64,000 nt of DNA from Pseudomonadota bacterium (GTDB lineage Bacteria; Pseudomonadota; Gammaproteobacteria; JAKAQQ01). Shown here in pieces: positions 38,384 through 39,990 of this stretch. Every line of letters begins with the position of its first letter. Positions within the stretch are counted from its first letter, which is position 1. The notes beneath the pieces are model-generated. The model did no database searches and had not been told where the DNA came from. It saw only the letters and a list, made by a program, of their open reading frames with translations. The position numbers and the translations under genes are program-made. The stretch covers positions 53,361-117,360 of the forward strand of contig DAHVLZ010000010.1 of assembly GCA_027320085.1 (NCBI GenBank), given 5' to 3'.

Positions 38384-39609
38384 GTGGCCGAACACCACAC
38401 CATTCTCGGCGGCAAAGTCCACGTGTACATGCGGCCCAACAGCAGCCACTGGCAGTGCTCCACCTACCTCGCGGGCAAGAACCGGCGTCTCAGCACGAAA
38501 GACGACAGCCTCGCGAGGGCCAAGGAGATTGCCGAGGACTGGTATCTGCAACTGCGCGGCAAGCTCCGGAGCGGCGAAATCAAATCCGAAAAGACCTTCG
38601 GCGAAGCGGCGGAGCAGTTCCTCCGCGAATATGAAATCATCTGCGCATGAGCGCGCACCTCGTCCCCTTCTTCGGGAAGATGGGCCTCTCCGAGATCACC
38701 TCCGGAACGGTGCAGGAATACAGAATCCACCGGCTGCAGCAGGCGATGAAGAAGTTCAACAAGCCGCCCGCCCGCAGCACCATTCACCAGGAAATCGTTT
38801 GCTTGCGGCAGGCCCTCAAAACAGCTATCCGCCACGGATGGCTGGACCGCCTGCCGGACCTCTCGGAACCCTATAGGGCTTCCGGCAAAATCTCGCACCG
38901 GACATGGTTTTCGCCGGAGGAATACAAGAAGCTCTACGAGGCCACGCGCGAGCGCGCGCACCATCCGCTCAATCCCCGCTATCAGTGGGAATCAGAACAG
39001 ATGCATGATTATGTTCTGTTCATGGCGAATACGGGTCTGGGCCCCGACGAGGCCCGGCGTCTCCAGTTCCGCGATGTCACCATCGCAAAGGATGACGGCC
39101 TCAAGAAAGAAATCCTGGAAATCGAGGTTCGGGGCAAGCGCGGCGTCGGCTATTGCAAGAGTATGCCGGGCGCCGTGGTTCCCTTCGAGCGCCTCAAGGC
39201 GCGCAATGTTGAAAAGCGCAAGCAGGAAGCGGAGAAGGCGGCACGGAAAGCCGGGGCCGCTCCGCAGGCGAACGGCCAGACGGGAGCGAGCAAGGAACCT
39301 GATCCCACCGACCTGCTTTTTCCGAAGTCCCATCGGGAGCTGTTCAATGCCATTCTGGATGAACAGGCACTCAAGACCGACCGGGAGGGCCAGCCGCGCA
39401 CGGCCTACAGCCTGCGCCACACCTACATCTGCCTGCGACTGATGGAAGGGGCCGACATCTACCAGATCGCCAAGAACTGCCGCACCAGTGTCGAGATGAT
39501 CGAAAAATACTACGCCTCCCACATCAAGAACAGCCTCGACGCAGCGGCGATCAACGTGATGAAACCGAAACGGCCCAAAGAGAAGCAAAATAAAAACGAC
39601 GAGAAATAA
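38384..39609 (+). pseudogene. Tyrosine recombinase/integrase, split and catalytically degenerate
   Basis: Two ORFs (38384-38650, 38647-39609); box I reads TGLGPDE where TGLRxxE is expected; YSLRHTY and EKYY are retained. Confidence 0.88.
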
Positions 39610-39669
39610 ACGCGCAGCCCGAAGTCACCGTGCCTTCTTTGCGCGACTGGGTTATTATTTGAATGGTGT

Positions 39670-39990
39670 GCCGGCGTGGCGGAATGGCAGACGCGGCGGA
39701 CTCAAGCCAGAATTGAGTGCTCGCCGGGAAACCGGCGATGCAGAACTGCTCAAAGTCGGGGAAGCCTGAAATGGTAATCCCGAGCCAAGCCTGAACGGAC
39801 AGTTCAGGAAGGTGTAGAGACTAGACGGGCAGCACCTAACCTCCGAATTCTCCGGAGCACGGTGAAGGGATAGTCCAGACCACAAACTTCCGTGAAGGCT
39901 CCTGCCTGACGGAAGGCGGCGAAAGCCGTAGAGGCAAGAAAATCCGCTGGGCGCAAGCCCGTGTGGGTTCGACTCCCTCCGCCGGCACCA
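39670..39990 (+). tRNA. tRNA-Leu(CAA) interrupted by a group I intron (exons 39670-39703 and 39939-39990)
   Basis: Joined exons give an 86-nt cloverleaf: GCCGGCG/CGCCGGC acceptor, GCGGA-CTC^AAAA-TCCGC anticodon arm, GGGC-GCAA-GCCC variable arm, GTTCGA, CCA. Confidence 0.92.
39704..39938 (+). ncRNA. Group I self-splicing intron (235 nt, no ORF; IC3-like)
   Basis: P1 ACTC^AA/TTGAGT, P3 CTGCTC/GGGCAG, P/Q elements AAAGTCGGGGAA/AATCCCGAGC, R element GTAGAGACTAGACGG, S element GAAGGGATAGTCC, terminal G at 39938. Confidence 0.92.

Follow-up and report, generated by a model that had tools for sequence, protein, structure and literature searches.

The window analysed here is the whole 64,000-nucleotide (nt) stretch of contig DAHVLZ010000010.1 (positions 53,361 to 117,360 of the forward strand) in assembly GCA_027320085.1, from a gammaproteobacterium of the GTDB lineage JAKAQQ01. 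It holds a genomic island in which a probable tyrosine integrase gene (int) is followed by a tRNA-Leu(CAA) gene split by a group I intron, called below the spare tRNA. Our analysis supports the view, to which we assign a probability of about 0.8, that this pair is the defunct CAA version of a split-and-replace family, in which the integrase cuts a tRNA-Leu gene of the host and the element carries a spare with the same anticodon, usually split by an intron. In the relatives of the window, the main role of the spare would be to replace the gene destroyed by the island, a role that the preliminary description of this DNA had missed.

Integrase relatives and their tRNA-Leu genes

Relatives of the integrase were collected from metagenomes, in which 598 candidate stretches gave 410 confirmed relatives; the best 80 were kept, and all counts out of 80 concern these closest relatives. 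Since the kept loci also include near-duplicates (L221 and L222 are identical), the counts are not independent of each other. The loci were sorted with ARAGORN, with an nhmmer profile built from 34 intron-bearing genes and with a pattern for tRNA halves. In what follows, L-numbers denote fetched DNA stretches and G-numbers denote genomes, including G333 and G072, which belong to the same class as the window.

The module of integrase, tRNA and intron proved to be recurrent, as the preliminary description had proposed. An intron-bearing tRNA-Leu gene lies downstream of the integrase in 47/80 loci (41 whole genes and 6 cut by a contig end), and 42 of these 47 genes start on the same strand, at most 310 nt past the point where the integrase match ends. 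Among the other five, four lie at 1.06-1.46 kb and one at 2.06 kb on the opposite strand. The downstream gene is an intronless tRNA-Leu in 11/80 loci (10 CAA, 1 UAG), and a 3'-exon fragment is all that was left in 1/80, with L214 and L217 likewise when inspected by eye. On the upstream side, the 5' half of a tRNA-Leu gene, broken off in the anticodon loop, was found 110-152 nt before the integrase in 56/80 loci, while 6/80 have too little flank and 10/80 carry an upstream region not recognised by the tRNA-half pattern. The anticodon of the cut half is that of the spare in all 47 loci in which both could be read (35 UAA, including one whose junction is unclear, and 12 CAA), so that the earlier expectation of a cargo anticodon that tracks the target tRNA was borne out; the window shows the same match, with CAA in both genes.

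As a general rule, tRNA-Leu(UAA) alone reads UUA, and UUG has two readers. In our table, which includes G333, G072 and the window, a spare is kept in 35/36 of the UAA-target islands and is missing or fragmentary in 7/21 of the CAA-target islands, which fits the reading of UUA by tRNA-Leu(UAA) alone. Deletion of the spare, or its reduction to a 3'-exon piece, was seen in L159, L200, L214 and L217, three of them in CAA targets, with the downstream stretch kept.

The layout is most complete in G333. There, int is preceded by the front half of a tRNA-Leu(CAA) gene, which carries promoter-like sequence and breaks off in the anticodon loop at a distance of 130 nt. Past int comes an intronless tRNA-Leu(CAA) gene that is complete, and 37.6 kb further on lies the matching 3' half; all of these, int included, share one strand. 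The G333 island has cut the host gene and carries a spare. Close relatives of the integrase were found among 401 same-class genomes only in G333 and in G072, in which a complete tRNA-Ser precedes the integrase relative. A search of 50,697 phage records gave no integrase match, IMG/VR gave one relative, and the two plasmid-borne relatives that were inspected are of the classical kind, with the 3' part of a tRNA upstream and no intron-bearing tRNA.

Introns in tRNA-Leu(CAA) genes are also found elsewhere. A pattern scan of genome contigs (596 billion bases), which returned at least 120 stretches, was too loose for a census; among the matches listed, ARAGORN with introns allowed gave 27 intron-bearing tRNAs, of which six were called Leu(caa). 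This number counts L074, a call that was rejected, as by eye it is a CAU tRNA. Next to other CAA introns in loci L002-L130, a tblastn search with both fragments of the window integrase found nothing. In L027 (Bordetella tumbae) and L105 (Achromobacter sp.), a 39-nt tRNA-Leu(CAA) 5' half starts 235 nt upstream of an intron-bearing tRNA-Leu(CAA) gene and is identical to the 5' exon of this neighbour, and the 8-kb locus holds no homologue of the window integrase. This layout looks like the scar of a similar split-and-replace event.

The spare tRNA-Leu(CAA) and its intron

With introns allowed, ARAGORN reports a tRNA-Leu(caa), i(35,235), at 39670-39990 of the window. This upholds the earlier claim of a complete second tRNA-Leu(CAA) that begins 60 nt past the integrase stop and is split by a 235-nt group I intron. 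All features of the module lie on the plus strand. The 5' exon (39670..39703) ends at the wobble base C34; the intron (39704..39938) contains no open reading frame (ORF) and sits between anticodon positions 34 and 35; the 3' exon (39939..39990) starts with AAAATCC and includes a long variable arm and an encoded CCA. At the DNA level the intron thus physically splits the attachment (att) core of 10-13 nt, as had been stated before.

The Rfam family Intron_gpI (RF00028) matches 39694-39894 with 32.4 bits (E 1.6e-6 in a search of 551 nt), below the gathering score of 50; at gathering scores the whole window gave no match. An nhmmer profile of the relatives spans the whole spare gene with 296 bits. 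The RNAalifold consensus of 29 sequences contains 79 pairs, including the tRNA stems across the intron, and 38 of these pairs show compensatory change. In the same alignment the 5' splice-site pair is U.G in 22/29 sequences and C-G in 7/29, the window among them, and the partner G is invariant. The usual group I feature of a U at -1, forming a U.G wobble in P1, is therefore replaced in the window intron by C(-1)-G, and the last intron nucleotide is G in the window (39938) and in all aligned relatives. By the ARAGORN call and the junction sequence, the intron belongs to the class Leu.3Cg: it lies in a tRNA-Leu after anticodon-loop position 3, with C at -1 and G as its last base.

Of the 162 columns with at least 90% conservation, the window spare deviates in only 2 (family range 0-6). 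The gene thus shows no decay beyond a U-U mismatch in the T stem, which it shares with its sister L207. Its variable arm nearly equals the one in the UAA gene of G060, whereas the resident CAA gene has a different one. Taken together with the tree position described below, these UAA-like exons indicate that the CAA spare is a UAA-type spare with the wobble base changed to C.

No second copy of the spare's 3' exon was found in the window or elsewhere in the genome, in line with the earlier view of the second tRNA as cargo and not as an att site. The intron-bearing gene was also not found in any of three same-genus genomes (3/3), and its relatives are on islands in many metagenomes; the proposal that the island spreads an ORF-less intron is thus supported. 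Of the three outcomes that the preliminary description had named as grounds for refutation, none occurred.

The spare is followed by a conserved stretch with terminator-like hairpins (39991..40160), likely the end of the int-tRNA transcription unit. It is 73-87% identical in L159, L162, L157, L160 and L166, and in part in L184, L165 and L221/L222; hairpins such as GGATGGAACCATCC lie at 40068-40081 and 40146-40159. The stretch is kept even in L159, an island which has lost the tRNA. These approximately 170 nt may represent an operon terminator or a small structured RNA.

In DNA runs X2 and X4, a joint from 39703 to 39939 that skips the 235 nt was considered as an intron-free allele and rejected. 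Its depth is several times that of the organism's own contigs and its sides are 34 nt each, and we attribute it to intronless tRNA-Leu(CAA) genes from other organisms. Further intron-bearing calls by ARAGORN in G000 may be false: a tRNA-Pro with a 13-nt intron (C2:1608-1711), a tRNA-Ser(tga) with a 248-nt intron (C7:34812-35152) and a tRNA-Pro(cgg) with a 302-nt intron (C21:3147-3532).

The integrase is broken

The integrase of the window is present as two fragments. The N-terminal fragment (38384..38650, 88 amino acids) shows 62-63% identity to residues 1-87 of intact homologues, and the C-terminal fragment (38647..39609, 320 amino acids) lies in another frame. In comparison with intact homologues of 384 and 395 amino acids, approximately 17-18 residues are missing at the joint, where the frame changes, and a 28-residue insertion is also present. 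In three further DNA runs from the same study, contigs cover the break without differences, and it is therefore not an assembly error. The window integrase is dead, and the module defunct in this genome.

Both fragments score below the Pfam cut-offs. The intact homologue of G333 exceeds them for Phage_int_SAM_3 (29.3) and Phage_int_SAM_5 (24.5). In an integrase tree of 83 rows, in which the window protein was entered with X at the break, the window falls within a clade of 42 rows with 99% support, mostly of the UAA and intron type, and its nearest neighbour is L165 (81% identity). The target state changes at least 15 times on this tree, which has many unresolved forks.

The resident tRNA, the island and its surroundings

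By default ARAGORN and by Rfam gathering scores, the sole tRNA of the window is the resident intronless tRNA-Leu(CAA) at 38020..38106 (plus strand; Rfam tRNA 62.3 bits), which is complete and in its native position. Synteny with two same-genus genomes reaches the 3' end of this gene, which has the position of their tRNA, and stops there, so that an empty site cannot be read from these relatives. A promoter-like site precedes the resident gene (37958-37986), and just past it the guanine-cytosine (GC) content drops from 0.63-0.73 to 0.51-0.61. The genome has a tRNA-Leu(UAA) gene as well (ARAGORN). Since the resident tRNA-Leu(CAA) is intact, the spare is redundant here, and it is unlikely that this carrier needs it for survival.

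The segment 38255-59167 appears to be a 20.9-kb integrative defence island. Its left junction is a 19-nt remnant resembling an anticodon arm (38236..38254, plus strand), followed by AT-rich island DNA. The remnant ends 130 nt before the integrase start, within the distance usual in the relatives (110-152 nt), and carries the exact 11-nt word GATTCAAAATC at 38244-38254; the right core reads GACTCAAAATC, with one difference. The right junction (attR; 59168..59226, plus strand) consists of the core GGACTCAAAATCC and, after it, the 3' half of the host tRNA-Leu(CAA) in a displaced position; compared with the tRNA of two same-genus genomes, this half shows 95-97% identity. From the anticodon arm onward, the resident tRNA is matched by the direct repeat at 59168-59244 with 94% identity. 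The earlier statement that the island sits in the host tRNA-Leu(CAA) stands for the repeat that begins in the anticodon arm; it does not stand for the host gene, which is uncut and lies 137 nt to the left of the island junction. A complete gene together with a remnant probably means that an earlier classical island had left a displaced partial copy which the present island then entered, or that the gene was rebuilt later.

Motifs of the TACACA/TTCACA type form a cluster before the integrase (38330..38356, plus strand), with one exact YTTWCACA match at 38339-38346; they might be arm sites of the integrase or part of the int promoter region. Most relatives have the same pair of motifs before the integrase. 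A cluster of the same type lies approximately 50 nt to the left of the right core (59091..59118, plus strand), so that such clusters are found about 50-100 nt inside both island ends. An internal copy of the right-end cluster (59091-59120) is present at 55053-55082, just before a SMODS gene. No att core follows this copy, which may mark a former end of the island, the cargo having been added in blocks.

The cargo (40300..59090; GC 0.51-0.61) is mostly of defence type according to Pfam scans of 20 ORFs: HTH, ImmA/IrrE, Fic, Schlafen AlbA_2, an AAA/SMC-like ATPase and a ResIII helicase, and further an N6_N4 methylase, SMODS with S_4TM, and AbiEii/AbiEi. Conjugation families were not found by Pfam in the 20 ORFs scanned between 40300 and 63367.

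Beyond the right junction lies a third, partial copy of the tRNA that spans the T arm through the 3' end (60994..61060, plus strand; repeat match at 60966-61042), with approximately 35 nt of flank resembling the flank past the resident tRNA. This copy appears to be the remnant of a further island event. The 1.8-kb segment between the second and third 3' copies (59227-61060) holds an alpha/beta-hydrolase-like ORF on the minus strand (59385-61037), and this layout suggests tandem or nested island events at the resident tRNA. An end at 38136 in DNA run X2 was considered as an empty site and rejected: its continuation matches the sequence past the third repeat copy, and the end is the genome's own locus near 61000 mapping onto its repeat. 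After the island complex, a 760-amino-acid Sel1-repeat protein is encoded at 61085-63367 (108-nt DNA repeats, 11 Sel1 stretches by Pfam). The GC content stays near 0.6 to the end of the window, and more foreign DNA may follow.

Origin of the intron and of its C(-1) state

In a tree of 52 intron-bearing tRNA genes, the window spare is sister to L207 with 95% support. Both lie inside a clade of 43 genes (97% support) that holds 40 element spares and the chromosomal Leu(UAA) genes of G060, G406 and G343; a second CAA pair, L209 and L221, falls in the same clade. The three chromosomal Leu(UAA) genes are also the nearest chromosomal relatives of the window intron, with 76-77% identity. A separate, long-branched CAA group comprises genes of Bordetella tumbae, an Achromobacter, three Steroidobacteraceae and G017. 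On this tree the C(-1) state requires at least three changes, two of them within the clade of UAA-type spares. No cut 5' half was seen after tRNA-Cys in G060, G343 and G406. In G060, an ORF of 401 amino acids resembling DNA methyltransferases (L009:6321-7526) separates tRNA-Cys from the intron-bearing tRNA-Leu(UAA); the distance between these two tRNA genes is 4-440 nt in other genomes. In the diverged, long-branched CAA spare of L210 (3405-3725), the intron follows U33 instead of C34 and the U at -1 is kept. This shift is a second solution to the same constraint.

It has been reported that C-G at the 5' splice site inactivates the Tetrahymena intron (cited by Williams 2020, 10.1101/2020.01.27.920355). 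The same preprint described 72 Leu.3Cg introns, all in Proteobacteria, and stated that their splicing needs testing. One may ask whether islands are the vehicle, and partly the origin, of C(-1) group I introns, the integrase hopping between UAA and CAA targets, the wobble base of the spare following, and the intron being kept as a shield of the att core. The UAA and CAA cores differ by one base and the wobble base of the spare is the -1 nucleotide of the ribozyme, so that the choice of target would force the splice-site change. We regard this combined scenario as doubtful.

Proposed mechanism and points against it

For the split-and-replace family we propose the following mechanism. A tyrosine integrase would recombine at a core of approximately 11-13 nt in the anticodon loop of tRNA-Leu (UAA or CAA). 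As the att site of the element consists of the core only, insertion would cut the host gene in two without rebuilding it, and the element would for this reason carry a complete tRNA-Leu with the same anticodon directly behind int. The spare is probably co-transcribed with int, since no promoter-like site of its own was found for it and it is followed by a conserved hairpin. In most members an ORF-less group I intron would interrupt the spare between positions 34 and 35, inside the core, and it would have come with the spare gene, all element spares forming one clade. The window spare would descend from UAA-type spares, its wobble base having changed from U to C along with the integrase target. 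As this base is also the -1 nucleotide of the intron, the splice-site pair would have become C-G (Leu.3Cg).

Several observations weigh against the split-and-replace reading, in addition to the interdependence of the 80 loci and the RF00028 score below gathering. The replacement role is deduced from the relatives and does not operate in this genome: the window has a complete host tRNA, and what adjoins the island on the left is the 19-nt remnant and not a clean 5' half, so that no cut host gene is seen here. Among the relatives, 19/80 loci have no spare within a flank of at least 400 nt (2/80 lack the flank), and a classical complete tRNA (Phe, Met, Lys, Trp or Leu-UAA) lies upstream in 8/80. 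The catalytic domain Phage_integrase scores 23.6 in the G333 homologue, below the cut-off of 27.1. Six other intron-bearing tRNA-Leu(CAA) genes, in named genomes and in G017, have no homologous integrase within the stretches covered by a tblastn search with the G333 integrase. The RNA runs hold at most 0.08 of the sampled words, and run X15 holds only short pieces of other organisms, so that they are uninformative on expression and splicing. Finally, given its C-G splice site, the CAA spare may be poorly functional or without function.

Why the intron is kept

The intron of the spare might be a mere passenger. An ancestor of the elements would have captured a tRNA-Leu(UAA) with a classical intron that then persisted neutrally, and the CAA copy of the window may be poorly spliced or dead. 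We give this explanation somewhat less than an even chance. It accounts well for the single clade of the spares and for the chromosomal intron-bearing tRNA-Leu(UAA) genes that lie by tRNA-Gly and tRNA-Cys, with no integrase, in G060, G406, G343 and G130 of the same class; the broken integrase beside an intact host tRNA, the C-G splice-site pair and the T-stem mismatch also agree with it. However, the conserved columns reveal no excess decay, and unneeded spares are lost or fragmented rather than kept, as the four reduced loci show. Moreover, the wobble base changed to match a new target in at least two spare lineages (that of the window with L207, and that of L209 with L221), which points to selection on tRNA function.

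Alternatively, selection would keep the intron because it splits the att core of the spare, thereby preventing both the deletion of int by recombination between attP and the spare and the insertion of a second element into the spare. Such a shield is possible, and we consider it rather unlikely. The intron lies inside the core in 47/47 intron-bearing spares, and even in L210, where it is one position earlier, it is still inside. When spliced in silico, 33/35 intron-bearing spares carry the 10-nt word of their own target; among intronless spares this is true of only 2/7, or 3/8 with G333. The intron was also retained through the U-to-C change of the wobble base, which should weaken splicing, and disruption of tRNA genes as a protection has already been proposed for archaea (Randau and Soll, as cited in PMC4390854). 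On the other hand, G333, L173 and L232 have intronless spares whose core word is identical to that of the target, 11/80 loci have intronless spares, and the word GGACTTAAAA is common to tRNA-Leu(UAA) genes generally. The intron-bearing spares, being one clade, are close to a single event; only three independent contrasts on supported branches are available, for which a sign test (p 0.5-1) has no power. Introns are rarely lost precisely from DNA, so that retention needs no selection, and a newcomer that cuts the spare brings its own, which leaves the cost unclear. Shielding and neutral retention are not mutually exclusive.

In a third explanation, the second tRNA would mark the left end of a nested island, as its att site, or would be a host gene that happens to lie next to the integrase. 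This is very improbable: nested events did occur at this composite locus with its three tandem tRNA 3' copies, yet the 3' exon has no repeat in the window or genome, no integrase or other recombinase is found among the 20 ORFs scanned to its right, the order int then tRNA-Leu recurs in 58/80 relatives, and the gene was not found in the three same-genus genomes.

Significance and comparison with known systems

The module recurs in many environmental bacteria, as the metagenomes indicate. If the split-and-replace reading is correct, the spare tRNA of tRNA-splitting islands offers a route by which ORF-less tRNA-Leu group I introns pass between distant bacteria. It also offers an explanation of the C(-1) introns reported in 2020, whose -1 base would be the wobble base of CAA and cannot be U. 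The U.G and C-G versions of one intron are natural matched pairs for testing the role of the wobble pair in splicing, and the spares are a testable case of the old idea that an interrupted tRNA gene is protected from integrases. In addition, standard tRNA finders miss intron-split genes, so that carriers can seem to be without a leucine tRNA.

We found no description in the literature of the combined module, that is, of an integrase with an intron-split spare tRNA, and its parts have separate counterparts. Closest in logic is the tRNA-dependent lysogeny of actinobacteriophages, shown experimentally, in which a tyrosine integrase uses an attB site in a tRNA gene with a core of about 10 bp and the tRNA is not rebuilt (PMC10865867). 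As in the window family, the integrase acts in a tRNA gene, the core is short and a spare tRNA is carried. Those elements are phages, and the abstract does not mention introns in their spare tRNAs (PMC10865867), whereas the elements described here are non-viral islands in tRNA-Leu, with the spare behind int and usually an intron in it.

In Pasteurellaceae, the elements ICEMh1 and ICEPmu1 insert in the anticodon loop of a tRNA-Leu (UUG) with an 11-bp repeat, GATTCAAAATC, and one disrupted and one full copy of the gene are found (PMC6861422). This repeat is the very word that ends the left remnant of the window at 38244-38254. These are 78-kb conjugative elements with resistance genes and no reported intron (PMC6861422), whereas the window island has no conjugation genes in the 20 ORFs.

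Randau and Soll hypothesised that disrupted tRNA genes resist the integration of mobile elements (as cited in PMC4390854). The shield discussed above shares with this idea the removal of a recombination target by an interruption. As summarised in the citing paper, their hypothesis concerns protein-spliced introns and split tRNAs of archaea as a defence of the host (PMC4390854), whereas here a ribozyme intron interrupts a gene of the mobile element itself.

Among introns, the classical tRNA-Leu(UAA) intron of cyanobacteria and plastids (Leu.3Ug; Williams 2020, 10.1101/2020.01.27.920355) occupies the same site, 34/35, and has a core homologous to that of the window. It differs in having U at -1 and in residing in chromosomal genes, whereas the window intron has C at -1 and lies in the spare of an island. 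The Leu.3Cg class of the same preprint is alike in intron site, in the C(-1)-G pair in P1 and in the last G; its text does not mention integrases or islands, and in the window the class is represented by the spare tRNA of an island. To these known systems the window adds the module in its CAA form, a connection between switches of target and C(-1) introns, and an example of a decaying module.

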